This document shows, piece by piece, positions 9,565 through 60,938 of a DNA stretch of 64,000 nt. Under the pieces are notes generated by a model. The model saw only the letters and a list, made by a program, of their open reading frames with translations, was not told where the DNA came from and searched no databases. Every line of letters starts with the position of its first letter. The first letter of the stretch is position 1. Where the stretch lies: positions 1 through 64,000 of the forward strand of contig CAZSKP010000026.1 of assembly GCA_964607485.1 (NCBI GenBank). The letters run 5' to 3'. The stretch is from an uncultured bacterium (GTDB lineage: Bacteria > Abyssobacteria > SURF-5). The translations under genes were made by a program, and so were the position numbers.

Positions 9565-9579
9565 GCAATAACTATGCCA
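9565..9579 (-). promoter_or_regulatory. sigma54 promoter for the NifX-DUF1847/USP operon
   Basis: Minus strand TGGCATAGTTATTGC. Confidence 0.75.
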
Positions 9580-9858: not shown

Positions 9859-9873
9859 TGGCATATTTCTTGC
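9859..9873 (+). promoter_or_regulatory. sigma54 promoter for the qrc-tmc cluster
   Basis: TGGCATATTTCTTGC about 90 nt upstream of qrcA. Confidence 0.78.
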
Positions 9874-9964: not shown

Positions 9965-10603
9965 ATGACGGAAAGAAGGATCTCAGTCGGCCAAAAATAT
10001 TTTGCGGGTATCCTCGGTTTTTTCCTGGTCGGCCTGTTGATCTTCCTGTTGCTGGGCTGGTTTGTGTTTCCAAGCCTAATCTATGAAAGGAAGGCGCAGC
10101 CCGTGAATTACAACCCGCCGTTGCATGTGGAGAAGCTGGGCATTACATGCGATACGTGCCACTTCTTCCACGAAGACGGCAGTTGGGCGGGGATTCCCAC
10201 TCTGGAAACGTGTGTGGACTGCCACGCCGAGACAATCGGCGATTCACCCGAGGAAGAGAAGTTCGTCAACAACTATGTCAAGAAGAACAAAGAGGTGAAG
10301 TGGGCGCTATACGTGAGGCAGCCGGAGTGCGTGTCCTTCTCGCATTCTTCACACGTGAGAATGGCCAAGATCGCGTGTGAGACGTGTCACGGGCCGCAGG
10401 GCCATTCCGATGCGACAGAATATCTGGCAAACAGGATTACGAACTACAGCTACGTAGTGTACGATCCCCGCGTTCCCCTCAACGCTTTTACCATCATGAA
10501 CGAGAAGGGGAGCAAGGTGTGGGGAACCATGAGGATGGATGAGTGCGCAGGCTGTCACCGTTCGAGAGGAACGAGCACGGCGTGTTTCATCTGTCACAAA
10601 TAG
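9965..10603 (+). CDS. qrcA: Membrane-anchored pentaheme cytochrome c (QrcA)
   Basis: N-terminal TM; five CxxCH (CDTCH, CVDCH, CETCH, CAGCH, CFICH); operon position. Confidence 0.85.
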   Translation: MTERRISVGQKYFAGILGFFLVGLLIFLLLGWFVFPSLIYERKAQPVNYNPPLHVEKLGITCDTCHFFHEDGSWAGIPTLETCVDCHAETIGDSPEEEKFVNNYVKKNKEVKWALYVRQPECVSFSHSSHVRMAKIACETCHGPQGHSDATEYLANRITNYSYVVYDPRVPLNAFTIMNEKGSKVWGTMRMDECAGCHRSRGTSTACFICHK

Positions 10604-10646
10604 CACGCTGTCCGAAGAAATCTGTGGAGTGAAGGGAAGAGAGACC

Positions 10647-13040
10647 GTGGAAGTCAACCGCAGGACGTTTGTCAAAGGAATGGCCTTCGCCGGGGGAGCC
10701 GCCCTCGGGGTGATGCTGTCGCCTGCTCCCTGGTATCTGATAAGGGATATGGCGTTCTGGACGCAGAACTGGTCATGGGTTCCCGGTCCCGTGCCGGGAG
10801 AGCCTTCGTTCGACAAGACGATCTGCAGGATGTGTGATGGCGGATGCGGTATCAGGATTAGAAAAGTCGATGATCGGCTGGTGCGAATCGATGGAGACTG
10901 CGACCACCCGGTGAACAGAGGCTCGATATGTCCGCTGGGAACAGCGGCCCTTCAAATGCTCTACAGTCCGGCGCGCGTCAAGACCCCACTAAAGCGGTCG
11001 GGCGACCGAGCCAATCCGAAGTGGGAGCCGCTCTCGTGGGAGAAGGCGCTCAAAGAGGTCACCGACAAACTTCGTGCCCTTCGCTCCGCCGGTCGGTCTC
11101 ATTCAGTCGCCTGCATTGCCAGCCCTTCCGATAGCGTAGCCAACGAGCTTTTCGAGCGATTCCTGCAACCGGTCGGCTCTCCGAATTTCATAAGGATGAA
11201 CTCGAAGGCGGACGCCCAAGACATCGTGTATGAGCTCATGTATGGTGGGGAAGGGAAGATCGCCTACGACATCGAGAATGCCCGATGCATCCTCAGCTTC
11301 GGCTGCGACCTTTTTGCCGGATGGGGGGTTCCGGGCCGCATGTACCATGCACAGTCGGTCTGGCTCGACCAGCCGGGCAACGCCGAAACGGAGATAATCC
11401 AGATAGACCCGAGTCTTTCCATCACCGCGGCTAAATCCTCACGGTGGGTGCCCATCACACCGGGGGCCGAGGCCGCCCTGGCTCTGGGCATAGCCCACGT
11501 GTTGATCAGGGACGGCCTCTACGACAAGGCGTTCGTCAAGAATCACTGCTTCGGCTTCGAAAACTGGACCGATCAAAGCGGGAAGAAGGTTGCAGGATTC
11601 AAGTCGGAGGTGCTCTCCCGTTATTCTCCTCAATCGGTGGAGCTGATGGCAAAGGTGTCGGCGAAGGAAATCGAAGAGCTTGCCTACACGTTCGCCGCAA
11701 GCAAGCCGTCGCTCGCGCTCTGCGGGGGAGGCGGCGGCGACCTGTATGCGGACATGTACGCTTTGATGGCCGTTCACAGTCTGAACGCGCTCGTGGGAAA
11801 CATCAACCAGCCAGGTGGCATTCTCAGCCGGTCCGATACTCCGGTCAAGCCGCTGCCGCCGGTGAGTATGGATGAAGAGGCTGTTCGTGGTTACTCGACG
11901 CCCCGGATTGACGAGGCGGGAGGCAGGGAATATCCGTTCACCCGCTCACTGCCCGACAACATCGACGCGCGCGAGGTTGAAGTCCTGTTCGTGCACGAGG
12001 CGAATCCGTATTATGCTCTGTCCGACCAGAAGACCGCCGAAGAAATTTTCGGGAAGATTCCTTACATCGTCAGCCTGTCCTCCTATCTCGACGAAAGCAC
12101 GATGCGTGCCGACCTGATACTGCCGATACCGACACCCTTCGAGCGATGGGACGACCTCGTGAGTGTCCCGGGATTTCAATACCCGGTGTACGACCTGACT
12201 CGCCCCGTTGTCAAACCGCTCTACGACACGAAAAATGCCGGGGACATCGTCATCGAAATCGCGCATCGACTGGGAGGTGCGATTGAGAAATCGTTCCCTT
12301 GGAACAATGTGATTGAAGTCGTCATAGAAAGGGCTCAGGGACTGCACGAATCCAACAAGGGATTGATAGATACGCCTGAAGCCCTCGCGAGAGTGAGTGA
12401 GGGAGAACTCGCGGCCGCCTTTGAAGGGCAAGAATATCCTTCATTCTCGGCGTTCTGGAGCGACCTCGTGCAGCACGGCTGCTGGTTCGACCCGGTCTAC
12501 AACACCGGCGATCCGACAAATATCCTCAAGACTCCCAGCGGAAAGTTCGAGTTCTTCAGTCAACGCTTGCAGAGTGCATTCGGATTCAGCGAGGCGGCAG
12601 CGTGCATGCCACATTACACCGAGCCCGTGCCCAATCCAGAGGGCTTCGATTTGATTATTATGCCCGTCGAGCTTGTCATGATGGCTGGAGACGGGCTCGG
12701 CACACCGCCGCTGTTGATCAAGCAATTGAGGGACAACGAGCTTGCCGGAAAAGAGATGTTTGTCCAAATAAATCCGATAACCGCCATGTATCAAGGCTTG
12801 AAGGACGGCGACGCCGTGATTCTGGAATCGTCGCGGGGCAAGGCGAAGGTGCGGATACATACATTTGCCGGCGTGCGTGAAGGGGTAGTGCTGATTCCTC
12901 TCGGCTTTGGTCATACGGCCTATGACCAGTTTCTGCGAAACAAGGGCGTGAACGCCCACCAGATGCTCGATGTCGGGACCGACAGGCTCAGCGGACTGCC
13001 GGCCCGATGGTCTACGCCGGGGAAACTGAGAAGAGCATAA
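10647..13040 (+). CDS. qrcB: Molybdopterin oxidoreductase-like subunit (QrcB)
   Basis: Tat motif NRRTFVK; PAPW..WTQNW N-terminus; CxxCxxxC..C; DMSO-reductase fold motifs; GTG start inferred. Confidence 0.85.
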   Translation: MEVNRRTFVKGMAFAGGAALGVMLSPAPWYLIRDMAFWTQNWSWVPGPVPGEPSFDKTICRMCDGGCGIRIRKVDDRLVRIDGDCDHPVNRGSICPLGTAALQMLYSPARVKTPLKRSGDRANPKWEPLSWEKALKEVTDKLRALRSAGRSHSVACIASPSDSVANELFERFLQPVGSPNFIRMNSKADAQDIVYELMYGGEGKIAYDIENARCILSFGCDLFAGWGVPGRMYHAQSVWLDQPGNAETEIIQIDPSLSITAAKSSRWVPITPGAEAALALGIAHVLIRDGLYDKAFVKNHCFGFENWTDQSGKKVAGFKSEVLSRYSPQSVELMAKVSAKEIEELAYTFAASKPSLALCGGGGGDLYADMYALMAVHSLNALVGNINQPGGILSRSDTPVKPLPPVSMDEEAVRGYSTPRIDEAGGREYPFTRSLPDNIDAREVEVLFVHEANPYYALSDQKTAEEIFGKIPYIVSLSSYLDESTMRADLILPIPTPFERWDDLVSVPGFQYPVYDLTRPVVKPLYDTKNAGDIVIEIAHRLGGAIEKSFPWNNVIEVVIERAQGLHESNKGLIDTPEALARVSEGELAAAFEGQEYPSFSAFWSDLVQHGCWFDPVYNTGDPTNILKTPSGKFEFFSQRLQSAFGFSEAAACMPHYTEPVPNPEGFDLIIMPVELVMMAGDGLGTPPLLIKQLRDNELAGKEMFVQINPITAMYQGLKDGDAVILESSRGKAKVRIHTFAGVREGVVLIPLGFGHTAYDQFLRNKGVNAHQMLDVGTDRLSGLPARWSTPGKLRRA

Positions 13041-13799
13041 ATGACCGACATGAAAGATAGACCCGACAAACAGAAAGTCGTTCGATACGGCATGACCATC
13101 GACCTGGATAAATGCACCGGGTGCGGAAACTGCGCGGTCACTTGTCACATCGAGAACAACGTTCCGTTCCGCGTCGATGAGAGCGACAAGTCGCGCAACA
13201 TCGCATGGATGCGCATCTACAAGGTCGATAACGGCGCGGAATATCCGCATGCGCGCGTGGCGTATGTCCCCCGGCCCTGTATGCAGTGCGACCATCACAC
13301 GCCGTGCGTTTCCGTCTGTCCGGCGAGCGCCACGAATTACGACGATCTGACGGGAATAGTGGACCAGATAAATACGCGCTGTATCGGATGTCGATACTGT
13401 ATGGCGGCGTGCCCGTACATGGTCCGCTGCTTCAACTGGTGGGACCCAGTGTGGCCGGAGGAGATGGAGAAGGAGCTCAACCCCGACGTCGCTCCACGGA
13501 TGCGGGGAGTCGTCGAGAAATGCACGTTCTGTTCGCATAGATACCTGAAGGCGAAGGACAAGGCGCACAACGAGGGCCGAAACTACTTGAAAGAAGATGA
13601 GTATGTTCCCGCGTGCGTCGAGGCGTGCCCGGTGGGAGCGATGTGTTTCGGCGACCTGAACAACCCGGAGCACAAGGTGGCGAAACAAATCAGGAGCCCC
13701 CGCGCCTTTCGTCTGTTGGAGAAGCTGCACACCGAGCCCAAGGTGTACTACCTGAGTTCCCAGGAGTGGGTCAGAAAAATGGCGAACGGCTCGGTGTGA
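13041..13799 (+). CDS. qrcC: Four-cluster Fe-S subunit (QrcC/NrfC type)
   Basis: CTGCGNC, CMQC..PCVSVCP, CIGCRYCMAACPY and KCTFC..ACVEACP motifs. Confidence 0.9.
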   Translation: MTDMKDRPDKQKVVRYGMTIDLDKCTGCGNCAVTCHIENNVPFRVDESDKSRNIAWMRIYKVDNGAEYPHARVAYVPRPCMQCDHHTPCVSVCPASATNYDDLTGIVDQINTRCIGCRYCMAACPYMVRCFNWWDPVWPEEMEKELNPDVAPRMRGVVEKCTFCSHRYLKAKDKAHNEGRNYLKEDEYVPACVEACPVGAMCFGDLNNPEHKVAKQIRSPRAFRLLEKLHTEPKVYYLSSQEWVRKMANGSV

Positions 13800-13851
13800 C
13801 GTCACGCGGAACGTTGCGACGGCATAAGGTTAAAGAGACGAGACGCGTAAG

Positions 13852-15078
13852 ATGACATCAGCAAATGAAGTTCCGAAGTTGAAGCGATGTTCCCAGCGAA
13901 GGTTTCTCTTGTGGCTGGCTTTCTGGGGATTGCTGCTGGCATGGGGACTGTACGCGGCATTCCTCTGCCTTTTCAAAGGTCTGAATCAGACCGGGATGAA
14001 TAACTACTTCGTGTTCGGCCTGTGGATCACGGTTGACCTGGCCATCATCGCCCTGGGGGCGGGGGCCTTCTTCAGCGGATTCTTGTTTTACATACTCAGG
14101 GTCGATTACCTCAAAGACCTGATAGGCGCGGCCGTGGTCATCGGGTTCATCTGCTACAGCGGGGCCATAGGAATGCTGACCATCGACATCGGACAGCCGC
14201 TGCGGGGTTATTTCAGTTTCTGGCACGCCAACGTGCACTCCATGCTGACGGAGGTCATCTTCTGCATCACGTGCTACCTGTTTGTGCTTACGGTCGAGTT
14301 TGTGCCGCTGGTCGCCGAGCACAAAAAGATCAGCGACTTCCCGCTATTCAAGTACATGGGCGAAAACCTGCACGGCATAATGGCCGTCTTCGCGCTTGTC
14401 GGCACGTTCCTGTCCTTTTTCCATCAGGGCTCGCTCGGCGGGATGTTCGGCGTCCTGTTCGCGCGACCGTTCGCCTATCGAGCCGGCATAGCGATTTGGC
14501 CGTGGACGTTTTTCCTGTTCATATTGTCCGCCATTGCATCCGGACCGGCGCTGACGACACTGGTCGTGTGGACGACCCAGAAGGTCACGCGGCGTCAGCT
14601 TGTTCGCAGAACCACCTTGTCCAAGCTGGCCAAGCTGTCCGCCGTATTGTTCACGGTTTATTTAATTCTCAAATCAGCCGACACGGTCTATTGGGCGAAC
14701 GTGACGGCTCCTGAGATGGGATTCAAGTTTACGAGTTTTTATAAGGGGCCGTATGGAATGGAGCTGCTGTTCTTCGAGCTGTTCGTGTTCGGACTGCTCC
14801 CGGCCATCCTGCTCCTGATTCCGAAAGCGCGCGATTATGACCTTTCTCTGGTTCTTGGATGCCTGTTCATTTGCATCGGCGTCGTTCTCAACCGATTCGC
14901 AATAACCGTTCAGACGCTCTCGATACCGGTTTTGCCGTTCGAGAAATTCATGGCGTATAAGCCGACCTGGCAGGAATGGGCCATCTCCGCGGCGGTTGTC
15001 GGGTACGGGGTGATTTTGTATTCGTTGTCGTATCGCTATCTCCACCTGTTTCCGCGGGAGCGCGAACTGAACGCATGA
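13852..15078 (+). CDS. qrcD: NrfD/PsrC-family membrane quinone-binding subunit (QrcD)
   Basis: About 10 TM; FGLWI, DIGQPLR, SMLTEV and HQGSLG motifs. Confidence 0.88.
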   Translation: MTSANEVPKLKRCSQRRFLLWLAFWGLLLAWGLYAAFLCLFKGLNQTGMNNYFVFGLWITVDLAIIALGAGAFFSGFLFYILRVDYLKDLIGAAVVIGFICYSGAIGMLTIDIGQPLRGYFSFWHANVHSMLTEVIFCITCYLFVLTVEFVPLVAEHKKISDFPLFKYMGENLHGIMAVFALVGTFLSFFHQGSLGGMFGVLFARPFAYRAGIAIWPWTFFLFILSAIASGPALTTLVVWTTQKVTRRQLVRRTTLSKLAKLSAVLFTVYLILKSADTVYWANVTAPEMGFKFTSFYKGPYGMELLFFELFVFGLLPAILLLIPKARDYDLSLVLGCLFICIGVVLNRFAITVQTLSIPVLPFEKFMAYKPTWQEWAISAAVVGYGVILYSLSYRYLHLFPRERELNA

Positions 15079-15108
15079 ACTCTTTGGATACGAAGGAGCC
15101 AACGAACC

Positions 15109-15351
15109 ATGCTGCCAACGACATTTGAGTTTCGATGGGATGCAGGCCACATGATCTTCTTCGGAGTCTTCTATGCGGTGGTGATAGTGGTTTTCACAAG
15201 CCTGTTTTTTGTGGTGGCGAAATCAATCACCGACGTTTACAGGAACATGAAGACCGGCAGGCGACAGGTGGACGTTTCTGAACGCGAGGACGAAACCGGC
15301 CAACTGGAAGCGGAAGTCGCAGCGAAAACTTTAACGGAGCCTTCAGGGTAA
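15109..15351 (+). CDS. Small single-TM protein
   Basis: RBS AAGGAG; FEFRWDAGHMIFFG then a hydrophobic helix; in-operon position. Confidence 0.65.
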   Translation: MLPTTFEFRWDAGHMIFFGVFYAVVIVVFTSLFFVVAKSITDVYRNMKTGRRQVDVSEREDETGQLEAEVAAKTLTEPSG

Positions 15352-15390
15352 GAGCGCATCGGACATTACACTCACAGCTCAGAAAGAAGG

Positions 15391-16719
15391 ATGGATGGCC
15401 ACATGCAAAGCGTAGGGACAGCTAAAGCGGAAGCGAAAGAAGTTCTGCCCGGCAAAGACGGTTGGGACCGGGAGACCAGAGAGAAATTGGTTGCGGATAT
15501 TTCGACGCTGCGGGAAAAATTCGCGGAAGTGCACGAGTTTGCCGTCAGCGGGGATGGTGAAAGAATCGCCGTTCCGGTCAAGACGGAGGAGGGCCAGTTC
15601 ACCGTCTGCGTGAACGGTGAGCCGTGGGAACAGGCCTTCGAAAAAGTATGGTACCTGAAGTTCGGACCGGACGGCAGGTTGACGGCGCTCGTCAGGGCCG
15701 ACGACGAATGGACCGTCGCCGTTGAAGGCGAATGCTGGCAGGAAAAGTTCGAGTACGCATGGAACACCACGTTCAGCCGGGACGGCAGCGCAATCGCCGC
15801 GCAGGCAAAGAGGGTAATGGACTACCTGATAGTTGTGGACGGAGTTGTTTGGAACACTGCCTTCGTTTCCACCAGGGGACTCGCCCTCAGCCCCGGCGGC
15901 GAGAAGGCGGCCGCGGTTGTGCAGCCCGTGCCGTTAAAGGAAGCGGACATCTTCGGGTTTCTGGCGGGTACATGGACCGTCGCCGTCAACGACAAACCGT
16001 GGGACAGAAACTTCATCAACGTGTACTCTCCCACATTCAGTCCCGATGGCCGACACGTCGCCGCACAGGTCCGGCTCGGAATCTGCGAATATACCATTGC
16101 CAAAAATGGGCGGCCGTGGGGCCAGACGTTCGGCTGCGTGTGGGAACCCTGCTTCAGACCTCAATCGAATTCCATCGTCGCTCCCGTCAGGACCGGCGAA
16201 GGCTGGACATTGGCCGAGGATGGTCAACTGATATGGAACGGACGCTACGACCAATTATGGCGGCCAAAAATCAGCCCCGACGGAAACCGGATCGCCGCCG
16301 TCGCGGCTCCCAGCTTCGGGAAATGGACCATCGCTGTCGATGACGCGCCGTGGAAGAAGACATACAGCGATTGCGTGCTCGAGCCGTTCTTTTCAAGCGA
16401 TTCCCGGCACGTCGCCGCCATCGTGAAGGAAAACAATCGCTGGACAATCGCTGTGGATGGCGTCCCATGGACGGAAACCTTCGATATGATCTGGGACCCG
16501 GCGTTCGACCCGACGGGGGAATATGTCGTCGCGAAGGCCGAATGGAATGGGCGGTTCTGCATTGTTGTCAACGGCAGGATTTGGAGGCGCACGTTCGACG
16601 CGATGTGGGAACCCGTTTTCAGCCATAACGGGAAAATGCTCCTCGTCAGGTCGGTCGAGGACGGGAAGTACTACCGCCGTATCATCGACCTCCCGGATAT
16701 TCTGGATAATCTACGGTAA
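15391..16719 (+). CDS. tmcD: Trp-rich beta-propeller protein (TmcD)
   Basis: Repeated WTVAVxGxPW...PxFSPDG units; adjacent to tmcC and tmcB. Confidence 0.8.
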   Translation: MDGHMQSVGTAKAEAKEVLPGKDGWDRETREKLVADISTLREKFAEVHEFAVSGDGERIAVPVKTEEGQFTVCVNGEPWEQAFEKVWYLKFGPDGRLTALVRADDEWTVAVEGECWQEKFEYAWNTTFSRDGSAIAAQAKRVMDYLIVVDGVVWNTAFVSTRGLALSPGGEKAAAVVQPVPLKEADIFGFLAGTWTVAVNDKPWDRNFINVYSPTFSPDGRHVAAQVRLGICEYTIAKNGRPWGQTFGCVWEPCFRPQSNSIVAPVRTGEGWTLAEDGQLIWNGRYDQLWRPKISPDGNRIAAVAAPSFGKWTIAVDDAPWKKTYSDCVLEPFFSSDSRHVAAIVKENNRWTIAVDGVPWTETFDMIWDPAFDPTGEYVVAKAEWNGRFCIVVNGRIWRRTFDAMWEPVFSHNGKMLLVRSVEDGKYYRRIIDLPDILDNLR

Positions 16720-16731
16720 GGAGAATCGGAC

Positions 16732-17379
16732 ATGTATGAGTTCGCGAGCGGCCCGCTGGTATGGTTGGCGTTCATCGTTTTTTTCGGGGGCTCCGCATAC
16801 CGGCTGGTCTGGATGTTTCTGACCGCGAGGAAGGACAGGGTCGTCTATCCATACATGAGTCTGAAATACGGCCTGCGCTCCTTGTCACACTGGGTCGTTC
16901 CGTTCGCCAGCCTAAATATGAGAATGAGACCGGTCATGACCGTGGTCACATTCATGTTCCACATCTGCCTCATATTCACGCCCATCTTTCTCCTGGCGCA
17001 CAACGAACTGCTTCGGCAGGCGTGGGGCGTGAGTCTGTGGAGTCTCCCGCCCGAGTTGGCAGACATAATGACGGTGGCCGTCATCATTGGGGGCGCCTTC
17101 TTCATCGGAAGACGCCTCAGGCTGCCCGAAGTGAGAAATGTCACGACGTACTCCGACTACCTTCTGGTCGCTATCGTGCTCGCGCCGTTCGTGACGGGTT
17201 TCATCGCATATCACCAGTGGTTCGCCTACAAGACGATGGTGACTATTCATATCGTCACGGGAGCCATCATGCTGATGGCGATCCCGTTCACCCGGTTGAG
17301 CCACATGCTGTACTTCTTCTTCACGAGAGCGTACATGGGCTCTGAATTCGGGTTTGTACGCAACGCGAGGGATTGGTAA
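16732..17379 (+). CDS. tmcC: NarI-like cytochrome b membrane subunit (TmcC)
   Basis: GPLVW, FHI..AH, H..GAI and IPFTRLSH heme b motifs. Confidence 0.85.
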   Translation: MYEFASGPLVWLAFIVFFGGSAYRLVWMFLTARKDRVVYPYMSLKYGLRSLSHWVVPFASLNMRMRPVMTVVTFMFHICLIFTPIFLLAHNELLRQAWGVSLWSLPPELADIMTVAVIIGGAFFIGRRLRLPEVRNVTTYSDYLLVAIVLAPFVTGFIAYHQWFAYKTMVTIHIVTGAIMLMAIPFTRLSHMLYFFFTRAYMGSEFGFVRNARDW

Positions 17380-17402
17380 CCCTCTTAAAATGGAGGTTGA
17401 AC

Positions 17403-18785
17403 ATGGCCGAGAAGAATGCCGGTCAAGCCGTCGCGGAAGCGATACCGGATGAATCCAAGAGCAGGCTGACCCCCGAACAAATGGTAAAGGACCAGGGGTT
17501 GGACGAAACCATCAAGAAGCTGACCCCCGAACAAATAGAGCAAACCATAAACAAGGTTTTGAAAGGAGAGGGCGCGCGGCTCAGAGTGTACCTCGACACG
17601 TGCGTCCATTGCGGGCTGTGCTCCGAGGCGTGCCACACGTACCTCTCCCGCGACAGAGACCCGCAATATTCTCCCGTCGGCAAGGTCAAGAACACATTGT
17701 GGGAAATGGTCAAGCGGAAGGGCAAGGTTGACGCGGAGTTCATCAAGAATGCATCTCGGATAGTATTCACAGAATGCGCCGTGTGCCGCCGATGCAGCAT
17801 GTACTGTCCGTTTGGGATTGACATCGCATATCTGCTGATAGTCGTGCGCCGAATTCTTAACCTGCTCTACGTGGTCCCCGCGTACCTCCAAGATACCACC
17901 AACAGCCACGCCGCCACGATGAACCAGATGTGGGTGCAGGAGGACGAGTGGATCGACACGCTCCAGTGGCAGGAGGAAGAGGCTCAGATGGAGATGGCCA
18001 AGGCCAGGATTCCCCTGGAAAAAGAAGGAGCCGAAGTAATGTACTCGGTCATCGCTCCCGAGCCGAAGATCCTCGCTCAGCTCCTGAATTACATGTCGCA
18101 GTTCATGACGGTCGCCGGGGTGGATTGGACCATGCCGGCAACCGACGGCTGGGACAACAGCAACATGGCGATGTACTCGGGCGACTTCGAGACCATGGCG
18201 CGCGTCGAGCGGCTCCACTACGAAACGGCCATGCGGCTGAAGGTGAAGAAGATCGTCATGGGCGAGTGCGGCCATGCGTTCAGGGGCGCGGCCTACGACG
18301 GCCCCAAGTGGCTTTCCTGGCGGTTCCCGCCGATTCCGCTGATTCACGCCATCCAGTGGTACTATGAGCTCATCAAGAGCGGGAGAATCAAGATAGCCAA
18401 GAAATATCCCGAACCCATAACGGTCCAGGACCCGTGCAACGTCGTCCGAGGCAAGGGCCTGCATAAGATGCTTCGCTACATCATGAACGCTGCGTGCGAG
18501 GACTTCAGGGACGTTGACCCGAGGTTTGAGCACAACTACTGCTGCATGGCCGGCGGCGGCACGGTCAACTGCGGCCCCCCATGGACGCGCTCCAGAATGG
18601 TGAGCAACCGGGTCAAGGCGGAGCAACTCTCCGCCACCGGAGCCAAGGTGGTCGTCACCCCTTGCCACAACTGCCACAGCGGCATCGAGCAGATCGTCAG
18701 CTTCTACAAGCTCGACATGCACGTAAAATTTTTCGCCGAGATACTGGTCGAATGCATGGAAGTTCCCCAACACTTAAAGGTGTAA
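17403..18785 (+). CDS. tmcB: HdrD/DsrK-like Fe-S CCG protein (TmcB)
   Basis: CVHCGLCSEAC, CAVCRRCSMYCP, ECGH, QDPC, CCMAGGG and PCHNC motifs. Confidence 0.87.
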   Translation: MAEKNAGQAVAEAIPDESKSRLTPEQMVKDQGLDETIKKLTPEQIEQTINKVLKGEGARLRVYLDTCVHCGLCSEACHTYLSRDRDPQYSPVGKVKNTLWEMVKRKGKVDAEFIKNASRIVFTECAVCRRCSMYCPFGIDIAYLLIVVRRILNLLYVVPAYLQDTTNSHAATMNQMWVQEDEWIDTLQWQEEEAQMEMAKARIPLEKEGAEVMYSVIAPEPKILAQLLNYMSQFMTVAGVDWTMPATDGWDNSNMAMYSGDFETMARVERLHYETAMRLKVKKIVMGECGHAFRGAAYDGPKWLSWRFPPIPLIHAIQWYYELIKSGRIKIAKKYPEPITVQDPCNVVRGKGLHKMLRYIMNAACEDFRDVDPRFEHNYCCMAGGGTVNCGPPWTRSRMVSNRVKAEQLSATGAKVVVTPCHNCHSGIEQIVSFYKLDMHVKFFAEILVECMEVPQHLKV

Positions 18786-18788
18786 AGA

Positions 18789-20348
18789 ATGGATAGGATA
18801 CCTTTCAGACGAGCTCACGGATTGTTCTCGATAGTCCTGCTTCTTGCGGCGCTCTCGGGCGGCGCGGGGTGCGGCTGGCCCGCAGAGGGAACCCACTTCG
18901 AAATGACCCAGCCCCCAATCGCAGAGGAGGCGGAGCAGAACCTGCTGGAAAATCGGGTGATGATGGCTCGCCCGGAGGCGTTCGCCGAACTCGAGCGGCC
19001 GCCGGTAGTGTTCGACCATCGCCGGCATACGGAAGCGTTGAAGGAAGAGGGCTGCCGCGGCTGCCATCCGGCCGATGGGCAAGGGAAAGTGGATTATCAG
19101 TACGTCGAGTGGCGAGAGCTTCCGGATAGGCGCGCGCTCATAGACGCGTATCACGAAAAATGCATGAAGTGTCATTATGAAGGCGTCACGGAGGAGGGTA
19201 AGAAAGTCCGCGCCTTGACTTGCGGGGAATGCCATCTCGAAACGATGGCATACAAAACGCTGGAATGGTACCCTGCGACTTTCGACCATTTCCACCACAT
19301 AGACGCAATGGAAAAAGGGTGCGACACGTGCCATCACCAATACGATGAGGAGCGGAAGAAACTGGTCTACGAAAAAGGCCAGGAAGAGGCCTGTGGCAAA
19401 TGCCACAAAGACACGCCGGAGGGAAATAGGGACTCGCTTCGAAAAGAGGGTCACACAAGCTGCATCGGCTGCCACGAGGAGAAGTACCTGGCGGGCGAAA
19501 TCAAGCTCGATCCCTACGATTGCCGGCAGTGTCACAAGCCCGAGGCGAAGCCTCTACCCGAAACGAGAGAGATCGTCGCCCGAATCTATCAGGCGCAGCC
19601 GACGGAACTGTTAATCAGCTATCCCGGCTCGATACTGCCGCCGGTTCCGTTCGACCACGAAAAGCACGACCCGAAGAAAGAGTGTAGCAAGTGCTGCCAC
19701 CATTTTCACGTGAGAACGCTCGTGGCGGCGGACACGCGCTTCCAAGAAACCGCCGACGCCTGCCGGCAGTGTCACGAGCAGGCCGAGGTTTCGGCAAGAG
19801 CCGGCTGCGTGCAAGCGGACAAGATTTACCACGACGCCGAGTCGCCCAACAGTTGTGTCGGGTGTCACACGGAGCAAAATAAGGAAGTGACTAAGGAAGA
19901 CGAAAAGAGGCCAGTGAGTTGTAAGGGATGCCACACGGGCGACGTGACCGCCGTCCAGCCCGTCGAAATGGAAAAGGCCGGACCGCCCGAGGAAGGGCCA
20001 GAGACATACATCATAGCCCGGATGTCGAGAAAGTACCTGCCCGTGAAGTTTCCCCATGCGTCGCACACGAAGATGATCACCAACTGCGATTCCTGCCATC
20101 ATCACGGCCCGGAGAAGGAAAAGCCGACGTGCAACACATGCCACGGCGCTCCGTTGGATTTCATGAAGCTGACCAAGCCGAGACTCATCAGCGCCTACCA
20201 TCGTATGTGCATGGGATGCCACAGGGGCATGGGGACCGGCCCTGTTGCGTGTACGAAATGTCACGAGGAGCGCGAGACCATCTATCCGACCGGCCAACGC
20301 CTGCAGACGACGAGGGCGGCGGAACCCCCCTCGCCGCCCGAGTTGTAA
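18789..20348 (+). CDS. High-molecular-weight cytochrome c3-family protein, about 15 hemes (HmcA-like)
   Basis: Signal peptide; 14 CxxCH plus CSKCCH; four c3-type FxHxxH domains. Confidence 0.82.
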   Translation: MDRIPFRRAHGLFSIVLLLAALSGGAGCGWPAEGTHFEMTQPPIAEEAEQNLLENRVMMARPEAFAELERPPVVFDHRRHTEALKEEGCRGCHPADGQGKVDYQYVEWRELPDRRALIDAYHEKCMKCHYEGVTEEGKKVRALTCGECHLETMAYKTLEWYPATFDHFHHIDAMEKGCDTCHHQYDEERKKLVYEKGQEEACGKCHKDTPEGNRDSLRKEGHTSCIGCHEEKYLAGEIKLDPYDCRQCHKPEAKPLPETREIVARIYQAQPTELLISYPGSILPPVPFDHEKHDPKKECSKCCHHFHVRTLVAADTRFQETADACRQCHEQAEVSARAGCVQADKIYHDAESPNSCVGCHTEQNKEVTKEDEKRPVSCKGCHTGDVTAVQPVEMEKAGPPEEGPETYIIARMSRKYLPVKFPHASHTKMITNCDSCHHHGPEKEKPTCNTCHGAPLDFMKLTKPRLISAYHRMCMGCHRGMGTGPVACTKCHEERETIYPTGQRLQTTRAAEPPSPPEL

Positions 20349-42221: not shown

Positions 42222-43004
42222 ATGAAAGTCATTATCATGGGGTCGGGGACCTCGCTCGGGGTTCCGGTAATAGGGTGCAACTGCGAGGTGTGCACGTCGT
42301 CTGACCCGAGGAATAAGCGCACGCGCGCGTCGATCTGCGTGCAGACTGCGTCGGGCAAGAACATCCTGGTGGACACCGCGACCGAGCTTCGGCTGCAGGC
42401 GGTGCGCAGCGGAATATCCTCGGTCGAGATGATCCTTTTCACGCATTATCACGCCGATCACATCCACGGGCTGGACGACGTGAGGGTGTTCAACTGGAAA
42501 TCGCAAGGCTCGATCCCGTGCTACGGCGACGAGCCGACCGTCGAAAGATTGAGGCGAGTGTTCTTCTACGCGTTCGACCATGATTATTCGTGGGGCGCGA
42601 TCCCTCATATAACGCTCGCGTCCATGCCCGATGAGCTTGCGGTCGAGGAGGTCCGAATCACTCCCGTCAAACTGCTGCACGGGCGGGCGGAGATTCTGGG
42701 GTTTCGGTTCAACGATGCGGCGTACCTGACTGATTGCAGCGGGATACCGCACGAGTCGATGGAACAACTGAAGGGGTTGAGGCTTCTGATAATTGACGCG
42801 CTGCGTTACCGGCCGCATCCGACGCATTTCAACCTCGAAGGCGCCCTCGAGGCTATCGAGTGGATAGGCCCCGAACGCGCCCTGCTGACTCATTTGAGCC
42901 ACGAGTTCGACCACGAGAAGGCCGAAGCGGATCTGCCCGCGAACGTTCGGCTCTCCTATGACGGCCAGGTGGTGGAAATGCCGCCGCAAGGAGGCGCGAG
43001 ATGA
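42222..43004 (+). CDS. MBL-fold hydrolase (PhnP-like)
   Basis: GSGTSLGVP..CNCEVC, THYHADHIHG and THLSH motifs. Confidence 0.9.
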   Translation: MKVIIMGSGTSLGVPVIGCNCEVCTSSDPRNKRTRASICVQTASGKNILVDTATELRLQAVRSGISSVEMILFTHYHADHIHGLDDVRVFNWKSQGSIPCYGDEPTVERLRRVFFYAFDHDYSWGAIPHITLASMPDELAVEEVRITPVKLLHGRAEILGFRFNDAAYLTDCSGIPHESMEQLKGLRLLIIDALRYRPHPTHFNLEGALEAIEWIGPERALLTHLSHEFDHEKAEADLPANVRLSYDGQVVEMPPQGGAR

Positions 43005-43261
43005 AGCTGTATCATCTCTGGACCTGCCCGTACTGCTTCCGGGTACGAAGAAAGCTCAAGCAGCTCGGGGTAGAGTATGAGGGGATTTGGGTCGGATTCC
43101 ACCCCCGCAGGTGGGCGGAGGTGGAGCAATTGACGGGCAAGGCGATGGTTCCCGTGCTGGTGGATGGGGATAAGGTAATCAACGAGTCCGCCGTCATATG
43201 CAATTACCTGGAGAACAATTATCCCATTGACTCACGCGGACGCGGGAGCAAGGAGCGCTGA
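43001..43261 (+). CDS. Glutaredoxin / GST N-terminal domain protein
   Basis: CPYC, VPVLVD and ES..I..YL motifs. Confidence 0.85.
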   Translation: MKLYHLWTCPYCFRVRRKLKQLGVEYEGIWVGFHPRRWAEVEQLTGKAMVPVLVDGDKVINESAVICNYLENNYPIDSRGRGSKER

Positions 43262-48154: not shown

Positions 48155-48257
48155 GCTTACCCCTAAAGCGTGCACCAATTTGCGAATTCCGCAGGACGAT
48201 CAGTCGAGCGAGTTCGATACACAAAAAATGCCGCCCGGGTGTTGGCCCAGGCGGCGG

Positions 48258-48343
48258 TGCGGGGAGGGGGACTTGAACCCCCACGGGATATAGCTCCCGT
48301 CAGCCCCTCAAGCTGGTGTGTCTGCCAATTCCACCACCCCCGC
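48258..48343 (-). tRNA. tRNA-Leu(GAG)
   Basis: GCGGGGG/CCCCGC acceptor stem, TGGTGGAATTGGCAGAC D-arm, TTGAGGG anticodon loop, long variable arm, GGTTCAAGTCC T-arm; CCA not fully encoded. Confidence 0.93.
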
Positions 48344-54912: not shown

Positions 54913-55327
54913 GCAATAAATAATGTATGGTGGCCAGGATTTAAGCTGACAGTGATGCTGTCTCCTGCTGTGTCTGTACGTGTCGAGTTAAAATTGTCTC
55001 CGGATTTGTTCGATATTTTGAGACAGGGAGTCTATCTGAAAGCATTCTCCCATAAAGCCATCTAATCTGTCTATCTCCAACTTGCAGACCATAATCTTCG
55101 TCTAACATACTGCATTCGGTTTATGGTAGAATGATTTGATGCTGGAGAAAGAAAAGGAGATATCTGCGGAAGTGCATGTCTAGGCTATTATTGGTAATGC
55201 TTTCATTTCCAGCTTTATTCTTTATAAATTAAGTAATGAGATGTATCTTAAGCCCGAGTTTTAATGTTTGAAAGAGCTATGTTGTGCTTGGCTATATCTG
55301 CCACATCTAAGCCTCATTGAAATTAGG

Positions 55328-55744
55328 ATGTCCCTAATGGATTGTATTCAGAGATTAATGGCTGATGCATCTCCTTGGTTGGTTCCCTTAGTTCTCCTGA
55401 TTCTGCAATTTCTGTTCAAGATATACATAAACGGGACACCCTCTGGTAGCATATTCTGGAAGAGTTTTTTACAATCTCCTGTGGAGATAGGTTTTCTTGG
55501 GCTATCCTTCATAGCCGCAGCAGGGATCTCAGAGCTAATACCAGCTCCCGAAACAATAGGCTGGTTCGTTTTCTTTCTGTTGTTGAATATCTTGATTATC
55601 ATCATTTGGAAGCATTCTCCGGTCGGAATAAACTCAAAGCAGATTATGCAAGCCAGTTTTCTGGCCTTTTTAAATTTTGCTATATCAATAGCAATGCTTG
55701 TAGTTAGTATTAACCTTCTTATACGGAGGACCATTGCCACATGA
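55328..55744 (+). CDS. Small 4-TM hypothetical membrane protein
   Basis: Four hydrophobic segments; ATGA overlap with the next gene; AT-rich. Confidence 0.7.
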   Translation: MSLMDCIQRLMADASPWLVPLVLLILQFLFKIYINGTPSGSIFWKSFLQSPVEIGFLGLSFIAAAGISELIPAPETIGWFVFFLLLNILIIIIWKHSPVGINSKQIMQASFLAFLNFAISIAMLVVSINLLIRRTIAT

Positions 55745-56454
55745 GTTCACCTGCGCTCATTATTTTATATATGATTCCTGCTCTTCTCTCAGTCATGATA
55801 GCTTTGGCATTTCTCAGTCTTAAGTTGAATCGTATGTCGCGTGAGGTGAAAGAGTATCGAGAAGACAAATTCAGACATCAACTGGAGGCAAAGATAGAAG
55901 CTCTGGGCATGGATTTGGCCGCCAGTAAAGAACGATTTGAGCAGCTAAATCATTTGATTTTGAAGAGTCAACTGGAAGGAGCTTCCATTCAAGAAAAAGA
56001 AAAAGCCATAGGTCCAGGCGCAAATGCTTTTTTCGAAGCGCTAGGAATTGATTTGCACATGAAGGTTGATAAAGAACTCATCTTTGTGCTTATGCCATTT
56101 AGGCCAGACTTCGATGAGACTTTCCGTGTTATAAAAGATGTGGTTGAGTCAGCGGGATTCCGATGTATGAGAGGCGACGAAGAAAAAATTTCAGGTAGCA
56201 TTTTACCTCATATACTGTGGCTTGTTGCGAAAGCAAGATTGATCATAGCTGAGATTACCGGAAGAAACGCAAATGTTTTCTATGAACTGGGAATTTCACA
56301 TGCGATCGGAAAACAAGTATTGCTCATCTCAAAAACTGCGGAAGATATGCCTTTTGATATCAGCGGCCTCAGGATACTAACATATCAGGATTCAAAAGAT
56401 CTTACTCATAAACTGAAAGACTGGTTAATTCGTACATTTGCCAAAATGGAATGA
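55741..56454 (+). CDS. TM-coiled-coil-nucleoside deoxyribosyltransferase/TIR-like domain protein
   Basis: FVLMPF, RGDE, IIAEITGRNANVFYELGISHA and PFDI motifs. Confidence 0.8.
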   Translation: MSSPALIILYMIPALLSVMIALAFLSLKLNRMSREVKEYREDKFRHQLEAKIEALGMDLAASKERFEQLNHLILKSQLEGASIQEKEKAIGPGANAFFEALGIDLHMKVDKELIFVLMPFRPDFDETFRVIKDVVESAGFRCMRGDEEKISGSILPHILWLVAKARLIIAEITGRNANVFYELGISHAIGKQVLLISKTAEDMPFDISGLRILTYQDSKDLTHKLKDWLIRTFAKME

Positions 56455-56662
56455 GCAGTTTAATAATGTAAGACCTGATCCCACCTTTGCACTATCCTAC
56501 CGTGCAGGAAATTTTCTCGCTATTGATATTGCGGTTTTTGCTTTTTCCCCGTGATGCGCCGTGTTCCCCGTGGTTGAGAATTCTTTTCAGATTTTTGTTG
56601 GGCGCAGCATGCTGCGCACAACTACAGACTCGGTAGTGGAGAGGGTTACTTGGGTCGGCAGC

Positions 56663-56971
56663 TTATGGCTTGCCGTCGCAGAATCGTTTGGCGTAGTCGA
56701 GATGGTGCTTGAGCAGCCACAGCTTCTGGCAGAACTCGGGCCAGCCGCACTCCGGCTGAAAGCTCTCCGCGACCTCGGGATCCACCATCACGCCATGCAC
56801 CAGCGAGCCCTCGAGCTGGTCCCAGATGTCGCCCCACGTGCTCAGCGCATCCCGCAATACTGAGGCGTTGACGTTTCGGAAGTGCATCAGCATTTTCTCG
56901 GCCGAGACGGTGGGTCTTGCATGCGGCTCTTTGGCTGAGCCGCCAGGAAGAACCCTGAAATCTCTCGCCAT
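56663..56971 (-). CDS. Hypothetical protein downstream of amtB
   Basis: RBS AGGAAGG, host-like codon usage. Confidence 0.6.
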   Translation of the reverse strand: MARDFRVLPGGSAKEPHARPTVSAEKMLMHFRNVNASVLRDALSTWGDIWDQLEGSLVHGVMVDPEVAESFQPECGWPEFCQKLWLLKHHLDYAKRFCDGKP

Positions 56972-57067: not shown

Positions 57068-58378
57068 CTAGTCCACGGTTGACAGGGCATAAGCGCTTTC
57101 GCCGTGCTGGCTGTAGTCGAGCCCCGCCAGTTCCTCTTCGGCGTCAACGCGCAGGCCTATCGTTTTCTCTATCAGCAGTACAAGGACGAAGGTGACGGCG
57201 GCGGCATATGCGACGGCGACCAGCACGGCGACGAATTGAGTGCCGAACTGGCTCAGTGCGCCCACATGGTTGCTGCGCATGAAGAACGAGAGGGCGAGCG
57301 CCCCGGTAATCCCGCCCATGCCGTGTACGCCGAACACGTCGAGGCTGTCGTCGTATCCAAGCGTGTTCTTTACCTGGATGGCGCCGTAGCAGATGCAGGC
57401 GGCCAGCGCCCCGAGCGCAATCGCGCCGTACGGGAGAACTGCGCCCGCGGCAGGCGTGATGGCCACCAGCCCGGCCAGGATGCCGCTCGCGATGCCGAGC
57501 GATGTGGCTTTGCCCTTGTGGATGGCTTCGATCAGCATCCATGCGACGGCGCCCGTTGCGGCAGCGATCTGAGTGACGGTCAACGCCTGTGCGGTCCTGA
57601 GATCGGACGAGACGGCGCTGCCCGCATTGAATCCGAACCATCCCACCCACAGCAGGCCCGCGCCGATCATGGTCATGGTCAGGTTGCTTGGGTGCATGGT
57701 TTTTCGGGGATAGCCCTTCCGGGGTTTGAGGAAAAGGGCGAGAACGAGCGCGCTTATCCCGGAGGAAATGTGCACCACCGTTCCGCCGGCGAAGTCTATC
57801 GTGCCCATCCTGTACAAGAAGCCCATGTCGTTGCCGTTGGCATACCACACCCAATGACACAGCGGGTTGTAAACGAGGAGAGCCCAAAGTGTGATGAAAA
57901 TGCAGTACGCCTTGAACCTCACCCTCTCGGCGAACGCCCCCGCGATCAGCGCGGGCGTGATGATTGCAAACTTGCCTTGAAACATGGCGAACACGTACTC
58001 GGGAATGCCGTTTGTGACCGATTTGTCAATCCCTTTAAGGACGAAGTAATCCCAACTCCACCCGAACCAGCCGCCGAGCACGTTGTGCCCAAAAGCCATC
58101 GCGTAACCGCACACCGCCCAAAGCAAGCCGATGATGCCCATCGCGGCAAACGAATGCATCATCGTGCCGAGTACATTCTTGGAGCGGACCAGTCCGCCGT
58201 AAAACATGGCCAGACCGGGAACCATCAGAAGAACCAGCGCGGTAGACGTCAACATCCAGGCGGTCGTTCCCGAGTCGGTTTCCGTGGCCGACCCATTGCC
58301 GGCAAGCGCAACGCCGGGTACCAGGAAACCAACCACAAGGATGAGGATGACGACGAACAATCTCATTCTTCTTTCCAT
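57068..58378 (-). CDS. amtB: Ammonium transporter
   Basis: GLAMFYGGLVR, DFAGGTVVH, WFGFNAGS and DDSLDVFGVHG motifs; ATG 58378 with GGAGG at 9 nt. Confidence 0.96.
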   Translation of the reverse strand: MERRMRLFVVILILVVGFLVPGVALAGNGSATETDSGTTAWMLTSTALVLLMVPGLAMFYGGLVRSKNVLGTMMHSFAAMGIIGLLWAVCGYAMAFGHNVLGGWFGWSWDYFVLKGIDKSVTNGIPEYVFAMFQGKFAIITPALIAGAFAERVRFKAYCIFITLWALLVYNPLCHWVWYANGNDMGFLYRMGTIDFAGGTVVHISSGISALVLALFLKPRKGYPRKTMHPSNLTMTMIGAGLLWVGWFGFNAGSAVSSDLRTAQALTVTQIAAATGAVAWMLIEAIHKGKATSLGIASGILAGLVAITPAAGAVLPYGAIALGALAACICYGAIQVKNTLGYDDSLDVFGVHGMGGITGALALSFFMRSNHVGALSQFGTQFVAVLVAVAYAAAVTFVLVLLIEKTIGLRVDAEEELAGLDYSQHGESAYALSTVD

Positions 58379-58491
58379 GAACATGAACCTCCAAACAGGT
58401 GTGGTCTCGAGCCCGCCTCTGAGAATCCGACGATCACGCCGTGCTGCTGTTGGGAAACCGACTGTCCGATAGAAGATTGCTGTAAAAAGGA

Positions 58492-58581
58492 TCATAGAGA
58501 GGCGGACCGACCTTTTGAATGCCCCGCATTCATTCGGAAGCGAACCCCATAATTCGCATCATCAGGTCCGCCTCTCTATGA
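58492..58581 (-). ncRNA. Candidate structured leader (attenuator) of amtB
   Basis: Perfect 17-bp closing stem enclosing two hairpins, followed by UCCUUUUU. Confidence 0.55.
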
Positions 58582-58613
58582 ACTGTTTGCTTGTCTTCAG
58601 ATTCTCTGTAAGG

Positions 58614-58628
58614 GCAAGTCTGATGCCA
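58614..58628 (-). promoter_or_regulatory. sigma54 promoter for amtB
   Basis: Minus strand TGGCATCAGACTTGC. Confidence 0.75.
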
Positions 58629-58898
58629 TAGCATGTGAACGGAACGCCGGCATAACCTCAATGCTCTCTCAGAGAACGTCTTAGGAAGACTGGCGTGTCT
58701 GGATGCGCCTGCCTCTTGGAGTTCATTCAGGCCGGCATGGTGCCTGTTTCATAGGCAGTCGCCTAAGAAATGAGCAGCGCCGAAGCGATTCGACCGGCGG
58801 ACTGTGGTCCGCACAATCGAATAGGCTGGGCTCAGAATGCTTGTAAGTAAAGGGAGAAATGAATGTCGCGCCGTTCCCGCGGGCCATGACTTCGGAAA

Positions 58899-58914
58899 TG
58901 GTATCCTTTTTGCT
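58899..58914 (+). promoter_or_regulatory. sigma54 promoter for the PII-glnA operon
   Basis: TGGTATCCTTTTTGCT (GG-N10-GC). Confidence 0.65.
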
Positions 58915-59057
58915 TGCTATCCTTCTCGATTGCTTATGATATATAATATGACCTCGAGAGATTCTCGACCTTTCGATTGCCAATACGTGCACGCAGTCGG
59001 ACGACGGCGAAATCATCTCCCCAATGTGTCCGGATCGAGATGGGATTCCACACATGA

Positions 59058-59405
<348 letters not shown>

Positions 59406-59525: not shown

Positions 59526-60938
59526 ATGACCCCGCATGACGTGTTGAAAATGGTGAAGGAAAACAAAGTCGAGATGGTGGACCTTCGCTTCATGGATTTT
59601 CCGGGATTGATGCAGCATTTCGCTATCCCGGCGGCGAAGCTGGCCGAGGAAGTATTTGAAGAAGGCGTCGGCTTCGACGGTTCAAGCATTCGCGGCTGGC
59701 AGGCGATTCACGAGAGCGATATGCTGGTCATCCCCGACCCAGTCACAGCCTACATCGACCCGTTCTACAAGGCGACGACGTTAGTGCTTCAGTGCGATAT
59801 CGCGGACCCCATCACACGGGAGCGCTACAGCCGCTGCCCCCGGTACATCACGCAGAAGGCGGAGAATTATCTGAAGTCCACCGGCATCGCGGATACGGCC
59901 TATTTCGGACCCGAAGCCGAATTCTTCATCTTCGATGACATCCGGTACGACCAGAACCAGCACTGTGGATATTACTACCTCGATTCGGTCGAAGGCTCCT
60001 GGAACACGGGCCGCGAAGAGAATCCGAACCTCGGCTACAAGCCCAGATACAAGGAAGGATATTTTCCCGTGTCACCGACGGATTCGCTCGAGGACATGCG
60101 AGCCGAGATGGCGCTGACGATGATGCGCTGCGGAATGGACATCGAGGCCGAGCACCACGAGGTTGCCACAGCCGGCCAGGCGGAGATCGACATCAGGTTC
60201 GACTCGCTTCTCAAAATGGCCGACAAGCTGATGAGGTTCAAGTACATCGTGAAGAACGTAGCAAAGAAATACAATAAGACCGTCACGTTCATGCCGAAGC
60301 CCGTCTTTGCCGACAATGGCAGCGGCATGCACACGCACCAAAGCTTGTGGAAAGACGGCAAGCCGCTGTTTGCGGGCGATAAATACGCAGGCCTGACCGA
60401 CCTTGCGCTTTACTACATCGGCGGACTGCTCAAGCACGCTCCCGCGCTGACCGCTCTGACCAATCCCACGACGAACTCCTTCAAGCGGCTCGTCCCCGGC
60501 TTCGAGGCGCCTGTGAACCTGGCCTACTCGAGCAGAAACAGGAGCGCCGCCGTACGGATACCCATGTACTCGCCCAGCCCGAAAACGAAACGGGTCGAGT
60601 ATCGTCCACCCGACCCCTCGTGCAATCCGTACCTCGCCTTCTCCGCGATGCTGATGGCCGGCCTGGACGGCGTACAGAACAAGATAGACCCCGGCTCACC
60701 GCTTGACAAGAACATATACGACCTTCCGCCCGAGGAAATGGCGCAAGTGCCGTCGGTGCCCGGCTCGCTCGAGGGTGCCATCGACGCGCTCGAGGCCGAC
60801 TGCGACTTTCTCCTTAAGGGAGATGTCTTCACCGATGATGTCATAAAGACGTGGATAGAATACAAGCGCACCAACGAGGTGGACGCGCTCAGGCTTCGGC
60901 CGCACCCATACGAGTTCTACCTGTACTACGACGTGTGA
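59526..60938 (+). CDS. glnA: Type I glutamine synthetase
   Basis: FDGSSI, HHEVA, NGSGMH and NRSAAVRIP motifs; adenylylation site NIYDLP. Confidence 0.97.

Follow-up and report, generated by a model that had tools for sequence, protein, structure and literature searches.

The ammonium transporter gene amtB of an uncultured bacterium of the Abyssobacteria lineage SURF-5 is preceded by a long structured leader, found within a 64,000-nucleotide (nt) stretch of DNA (GenBank assembly GCA_964607485.1, contig CAZSKP010000026.1, positions 1 to 64,000), hereafter the window. The gene occupies 57068..58378 on the minus strand, and its product matches Pfam PF00909 with E = 1.4e-118. Its leader is divergent from the P-II gene glnB (59067-59405) and the glutamine synthetase gene glnA (59526-60938), and because the window, whose guanine-cytosine (GC) content is 56.5%, encodes QrcBCD and Tmc/Hmc complexes, the organism is read as a sulfate reducer. 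A sigma54-type promoter, TGGCAT-N5-TTGC (TGGCATCAGACTTGC), can be read from the sequence at 58628-58614 (minus strand). It is one of three exact matches to TGGCAY-N5-TTGC in the window, and a stricter form of the pattern with a final W would be expected 0.10 times by chance. From the usual spacing of sigma54 promoters we infer that amtB transcription starts at about 58602, and the first helix of the leader begins about 20 nt past this predicted start. The leader folds into a three-way junction that competes, in silico, with a second and non-random fold, and the best reading of these modelled structures is that it acts as an attenuator or switch outside any described RNA family.

All leader elements lie on the minus strand and are described here in the direction of synthesis. 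The outer helix, P1, is formed by UCAUAGAGAGGCGGACC (58581-58565), which is region 1 and holds a Shine-Dalgarno-like AGAGG at 58575-58571, and by GGUCCGCCUCUCUAUGA (58508-58492), the core of region 3, which as a whole spans 58512-58489; the two arms pair at 17 of 17 positions, all Watson-Crick. P1 encloses two hairpins. The first, P2 (GCGAAUU-AUGG-GGUUCGC, 58557-58551 / 58546-58540), is given seven pairs and a 4-nt loop by RNAfold, and a drawing with six pairs and a UAUGGG loop is equally valid. The second, P3 (UGAAUGC-GGG-GCAUUCA, 58532-58526 / 58522-58516), has a GGG loop and fits both of the states described below. P1 is followed by the tail UCCUUUUU (58491-58484), the putative termination point. 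Much of this layout had been claimed in an earlier note made from the sequence alone, namely the sigma54 promoter and its distance of about 20 nt from predicted start to stem, a perfect 17-base-pair (bp) stem, two inner hairpins (with P2 in the six-pair form), and a tail followed by about 100 nt to the ribosome-binding site. Each of these is present, with the amtB Shine-Dalgarno sequence, GGAGG at 58392-58388, lying 91 nt downstream of the U run.

Over a length of 141 nt, the minimum free energy structure computed by RNAfold is the three-way junction (-54.9 kcal/mol, z = -5.6), and none of 200 dinucleotide shuffles folds as stably. The helix is very stable, with its core at -49.2 kcal/mol, and the first 21 nt of the leader are unpaired in the predicted fold. 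P1 is also the strongest inverted repeat in the window and its only perfect one with arms of at least 14 nt, compared with eight such repeats in 768 kilobases (kb) of other loci. The 3' arm of P1 overlaps the upstream end of a longer open reading frame (ORF) of 475 amino acids (aa) that starts at 58495, which was rejected as an over-extension of amtB, the database copy of the protein being 436 aa long. When the leader-encoded N-terminal extension was searched against 5.8 billion proteins, the 436-aa protein of the window itself was the single one returned out of 178 candidates. The ATG at 58378 is most likely the amtB start, because it stands at a 9-nt spacing from the Shine-Dalgarno sequence and agrees with the 436-aa copy.

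The arms of P1 have other partners. A segment of region 1, GAGGCGGACCU (58574-58564), can pair with region 2, GGGGUUCGCUUC (58536..58547), made up of the 3' portion of the P2 loop, the P2 3' strand and the UUC after it. The product is an antiterminator-like hairpin, here called Alt, which is topped by an AUGAU/AUUAU apical helix (58562-58558 / 58553-58549) and is incompatible with both P1 and P2. Stepwise folding of the nascent chain shows region 1 paired with region 2 at a stage when the 3' arm has yet to be synthesised. The nascent 73-nt segment folds at -30.3 kcal/mol, a value matched by 10 of 1000 shuffles in which all three helices and the strand composition were kept. Region 3 in turn can form 20 pairs with region 4, GGAUUCUCAGAGGCGGGCUCGAGACC (58403..58428), which lies 64 nt downstream of the 3' arm, and in this alternative state CAAACAG (58589-58583) pairs with CUGUUUG (58398-58392), which adjoins the amtB Shine-Dalgarno sequence.

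Over the full leader the two architectures are nearly equal in energy, at -76.5 kcal/mol for the junction fold and -75.5 kcal/mol for the best fold without arm-to-arm pairs, a gap of 1.0 kcal/mol. When the downstream 99 nt were shuffled the gap widened to 8.7 +/- 2.2 kcal/mol and 1 of 400 shuffles reached 1.0; in controls that preserved helices and composition, with the flanks shuffled and base pairs permuted within the helices, it was 18.5 +/- 4.2 kcal/mol and never fell below 4.1, so that none of 300 reached that value. The antisense strand has a gap of 22.8 kcal/mol; the small gap therefore hinges on G-U pairing in the amtB sense RNA rather than reflecting the DNA palindrome. Across 27 folding settings that varied start, end, temperature and dangles, the gap ranged from -0.2 to 6.8 kcal/mol in all 24 that included region 4 and from 11.0 to 12.5 kcal/mol in the three that stopped short of it. 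Along direct paths, the barrier that separates Alt from the junction is 8.1-11.5 kcal/mol, and the step from P2 to Alt has one of 6.3 kcal/mol. By a rough, Arrhenius-type estimate from these barriers, refolding would occur on the time scale of polymerase transit through the 3' arm.

On these grounds we tentatively propose, in a reading that falls a little short of probable, that the element is a cis-acting two-state terminator/antiterminator switch in the leader of the sigma54-driven amtB transcript. The attenuator logic follows from the arrangement of the segments, because pairings 1:2 and 3:4 compete with 1:3 and the U run comes after segment 3. The earlier note had offered an attenuator as one option, and this option gains support in silico: P1 competes with a non-random, strand-specific alternative pairing, and an earlier-forming pairing that sequesters the terminator arm is found. 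State T would be the three-way junction, in which region 1 pairs with region 3 to form P1 around P2 and P3, followed by UCCUUUUU. Were it to form in time, transcription would end about 118 nt past the start, or the RNA would be marked for processing. State A would form first in synthesis, as region 2 captures region 1. With region 1 captured, P1 could not close as polymerase crosses the U run, and transcription would read through; in the read-through RNA, region 4 would then lock region 3 and hinder refolding. Any factor that stabilises P2 and the junction would free region 1, allowing P1 to close and transcription to terminate near 58484. Candidates for such a factor are a protein, a small molecule, or a ribosome on a 10-codon ORF within the leader. 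We infer that the signal for termination would be nitrogen sufficiency, so that the leader would provide a quick post-initiation off-switch on top of activator-dependent initiation.

Several observations weigh against this proposal. First, P1 would be an atypical intrinsic terminator. It encloses a branched interior of 56 nt, its helix has an AU-rich base, and the three nucleotides UCC lie between the helix and the U5 run; the glnA terminator of the window, by contrast, is canonical, a plain GC hairpin with UUUU directly after it. A built-in terminator scan, which permits loops of only 3-8 nt, did not flag P1. Second, the thermodynamic case has its own limits. None of the 27 settings gave a minimum free energy structure without P1, adding 35 nt of coding sequence widens the gap to about 6 kcal/mol, and the support for two states comes from a nearest-neighbour energy model only, with an alternative fold that had been noticed before it was tested. 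Third, the amtB transcription start is only predicted, the 17/17 helix without wobble resembles a young or DNA-level palindrome, and no homologous leader was found among 78 amtB loci. Finally, the accessibility of the amtB Shine-Dalgarno sequence is nearly equal in both states. Because it barely differs, control of elongation or stability is favoured over translational control.

The constancy of P1 in the minimum free energy structure would suit a constitutive structure that does not switch, either a sigma54-dependent small RNA of about 118 nt or a helix in the 5' untranslated region (UTR) for RNase III processing or stability. As a small RNA it would consist of body and terminator with an unstructured 21-nt 5' seed, expressed from a promoter common to amtB, and the unpaired 5' end, very stable body and U run do present a small-RNA-like layout. 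For the processing version, the 17-bp perfect helix with three further pairs should be long enough for RNase III. Neither version accounts for the complementarity of regions 2 and 4 to the arms, which greatly exceeds chance. In addition, when the 5' tail was matched to 59 translation-start regions of the window, none stood out as a target; that of amtB itself ranks fourth (-11.6 kcal/mol against a mean of -7.4 +/- 2.2). We consider a constitutive role unlikely, though far from negligible.

The 10-codon ORF named above as a place where a ribosome might act is putative. It encodes MMRIMGFASE, ends in UGA, and lies at 58530..58562, spanning the junction strand J1/2, P2 and the first bases of P3. 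If it were translated, the position of the ribosome could set whether region 1 pairs with region 2 or region 3. The geometry is suggestive, in that the SD-like AGAGG stands 8 nt upstream of the AUG and the ORF covers exactly region 2 and stops where P3 begins. The SD-like sequence is nevertheless buried in both states, the peptide has no run of nitrogen-related codons, and ORFs this short arise by chance, which together leave ribosome-mediated attenuation only a slim chance of being correct.

The proposed switch has the general layout of classical attenuators and riboswitch expression platforms, in which four segments pair as 1:2 and 3:4 to the exclusion of 1:3 and the antiterminator forms first. 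The amtB leader shares the four competing segments, the U run after the terminator arm and the early antiterminator. Unlike the classical arrangement, its terminator is made of segments 1 and 3 and encloses two hairpins, and segment 4 cannot influence the termination decision itself because it lies past the U run.

To look for relatives of the leader, genome contigs from 185,579 species genomes were searched with the AmtB protein, and the best 80 of 616 stretches yielded the 78 amtB loci mentioned above. Among these best 80, the closest AmtB relatives are 56-71% identical to the window protein and are spread over Bacteroidota, Chlorobiota, Planctomycetota, Desulfobacterota and other phyla. The window AmtB is also a one-member database cluster, and the AmtB searches suggest that the source organism is without a close sequenced relative. 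A blastn search of the leader against the 78 loci gave only chance matches of 12-21 nt (E >= 2). R1, a covariance model built from the single leader sequence entered twice, matched none of the 78 loci at E <= 10; it matches the window itself only, on both strands. Of the 78 loci, two of them without usable upstream sequence, 11 carry the strict sigma54 pattern in the 600 nt before amtB. Among the sigma54-bearing loci, a leader of comparable length was found in only one (L004), and it has no similarity to the window leader. An ad hoc scan for hairpins with a trailing T run picked out 43 of 74 upstream regions and was dropped as too permissive.

The same searches bear on the idea that a mobile or palindromic repeat, such as a miniature inverted-repeat transposable element (MITE), a repetitive extragenic palindromic (REP)-like sequence or a REP doublet forming a hairpin (REPIN), landed in the amtB leader, with the 17-bp arms as its terminal inverted repeats and any effect on the RNA incidental. 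The arms are indeed complementary throughout without a wobble pair, and the opposite strand also scores as a structure, at 43.7 bits with R1. Perfect inverted repeats this large are rare (nine in 832 kb), and at least one set of them is a repeated element. This set is in a locus of a gammaproteobacterial metagenome-assembled genome (L052), where two copies of the perfect inverted-repeat arm ATCGCGGATTAGATCCGCTCCTAC (1241-1346 and 4386-4458) are found in 3.2 kb and look like a REP- or MITE-like dispersed palindrome. Within the 64 kb of the window the 17-mer arm of the amtB element is found only as the two arms of P1, even with three mismatches allowed, so that the element is single-copy on this scale and the dispersed repeat that the earlier note had named as its refutation is not seen there. 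Neither the 78 loci nor 7.3 gigabases (Gb) of plasmids and 2.3 Gb of phages, searched by blastn, hold a further copy. No direct target-site duplication lies beside the arms, and no transposase was found among the window ORFs scanned, 56 of 62 of them against NCBIfam and 26 against Pfam. The alternative pairings, moreover, use unique sequence beyond the inverted repeat, in region 4, and do so on the sense strand only. A repeat origin thus appears rather doubtful, if still of some weight. As a separate test, AGAGGCGG was examined as a dispersed site; its five window copies compare with 3.2 expected and are overall not significant.

Known RNA families were searched with the Rfam 15 covariance models. 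At gathering thresholds the whole window returned only a tRNA; a tRNA-Leu(GAG) gene lies at 48256-48343 on the minus strand. When the 501 nt from 58300 to 58800 were compared with Rfam at E <= 10, five chance-level matches appeared, the best of which, mir-485, scored 17.1 bits against a threshold of 70 and covers the long stem only. This permissive search found no glutamine riboswitch and no ribozyme.

A few short motifs in the junction recall the hammerhead ribozyme, whose three-way junction carries CUGANGA, GAAA and UH in register as its core, together with an A15.1-U16.1 pair. In the leader, J1/2 reads CUGAUGA, GAA stands before P3 and GUC stands before the 3' arm. The match fails in detail: an extra UCC stands between stem II and GAA, stem III begins with U-A and lies 6 nt away from stem I, and no hammerhead family was found at E <= 10. 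The CUGAUGA of J1/2 is out of register, and both hammerhead and kink-turn look-alikes were rejected by eye.

In Rfam, glutamine riboswitches are represented by the glnA family, which has three stems, and by the Downstream-peptide family. The amtB leader resembles them in preceding a nitrogen-related gene and, for the glnA type, in its three stems. It differs in helix sizes that are clearly unlike theirs, and the failure to find them at E <= 10 agrees with the earlier note, which had judged that the leader does not fit the glutamine riboswitch consensus and had suggested Rfam as the check. Another comparison is offered by 'Candidatus Pelagibacter ubique', for which uncharacterised riboswitch-like structures upstream of amt and amtB, suspected to respond to ammonia or glutamine, are described (PMC3870248). 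The two cases are alike as orphan structured leaders before ammonium-transporter genes, a likeness by description only. They differ in that the amtB leader comes from another phylum, and the function of the Pelagibacter structures is undemonstrated too. In the riboswitch form of our proposal, a ligand such as glutamine, 2-oxoglutarate, ammonium or a related metabolite would bind the junction and P2 and block the capture of the 5' arm by region 2, so that P1 would close and amtB would be terminated, giving an OFF switch on top of the sigma54 promoter. A new nitrogen-responsive riboswitch had been among the options in the earlier note. That the three-way junction is the aptamer of such an undescribed nitrogen-status riboswitch has, in our estimate, a small chance of being true.

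The nearest functional parallel is found in Geobacter sulfurreducens, in which leader terminators of sigma54-dependent nitrogen genes (nifH, nifEN and glnK-amtB) are described as being relieved by the ANTAR response regulator GnfR (PMC2995071). The amtB leader is like the Geobacter leaders in its RpoN-type promoter, its place before a nitrogen gene or amtB operon, and its 5'-leader hairpin with a T run. Post-initiation control over an enhancer-binding activator would be a further likeness, which for the amtB leader is a proposal. An ANTAR-type target was one of the readings suggested in the earlier note, and the element could be imagined as an antitermination target of an ANTAR protein such as GnfR, EutV, NasR or AmiR. 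The Geobacter-like context (PMC2995071), with a sigma54 promoter followed by a hairpin and T run before a nitrogen gene, speaks for this, as does the fact that the organism, with its Qrc, Tmc and Hmc complexes, is read as a sulfate reducer.

The structural definition points elsewhere. ANTAR targets are described as two tandem short hairpins with hexanucleotide loops bearing A1 and G4, the second overlapping the terminator (PMC3369931). The P2 loop is either UAUGGG, with U at position 1, or 4 nt long, and the P3 loop is 3 nt, so that the two hairpins lack the required pair of hexaloops. Hexaloops on stems of at least 3 bp number 13 in the leader, and the single one with A1 and G4, at 58420, lies downstream of the U run. 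P2 and P3 also nest within P1 and coexist with it, rather than being mutually exclusive with the terminator helix. Unlike the Geobacter leaders, the amtB leader (58385-58640) lacks the GnfR recognition sequence CAGGCAANGGCGCC at up to three mismatches as well as the dual hexaloop; across the window that sequence has 26 matches with up to three mismatches against 29.4 expected. The terminator-like element here is a 90-nt branched junction instead of a simple hairpin, and the search for ANTAR proteins that the earlier note had called for turned up no such domain among the window ORFs scanned, which were 56 of 62 for NCBIfam and sets of 7 and 26 for Pfam. We accordingly give an ANTAR target scarcely any probability.

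The surroundings of amtB hold further features of note. The gene glnK is often found after amtB. Here no P-II gene follows, and the next ORF (56663-56971, minus strand), which encodes 102 aa behind a good ribosome-binding site, belongs to no Pfam family; its best Atlas score of 0.79 gave no lead. Between the two genes an 11-mer, GGGACTGTCCC, itself a small palindrome, occurs at 57057-57047 and 57008-56998, and its two copies bracket the hairpin ACGGGCCGAGCCCGT at 57038-57024. Because no U run follows this hairpin on the amtB strand, amtB and the next ORF may be co-transcribed. On the other side, glnB has its own sigma54-like promoter, TGGTATCCTTTTTGC at 58899-58913 (plus strand, one mismatch), and a leader of about 140 nt with a small hairpin at 58954-58968 followed by CCTTTCGATT. 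Both divergent nitrogen genes may thus carry structured leaders; a comparison of the amtB and glnB leaders found no common motif beyond trivial 7-9-mers.

Elsewhere in the window, two more exact sigma54-type promoters face apart at 9565-9579 (minus strand) and 9859-9873 (plus strand), preceding a DUF1847 gene (8487-9443) and a qrc/tmc/hmc respiratory cluster (10539-20348), respectively, with a gene for a sigma54-dependent activator nearby (6454-7800). A glutaredoxin-like ORF at 43001-43261 (plus strand) gives a sub-cut-off match to the Uxx-star (seleno)protein family. A low-GC island at 55000-56500, with 38-42% GC against 56.5% overall, holds two ORFs without family assignment (55268-55744 and 55741-56454) and may be foreign DNA.

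In the usual picture, NtrC-type activators and sigma54 control ammonium uptake at initiation, and GlnK controls it at the protein level by plugging AmtB. The amtB gene described here has a non-random two-state leader RNA and no P-II gene following it. The approach itself may be of use, as null models that preserve the helices let a single sequence be screened for switch-like behaviour without relatives. If the proposed attenuator is real, it would join Geobacter as a second independent case of a sigma54 nitrogen promoter with control after initiation, with an RNA architecture that differs from that of Geobacter. Should its sensor prove to be a metabolite, the leader would represent a new class of nitrogen-status riboswitch outside cyanobacteria.

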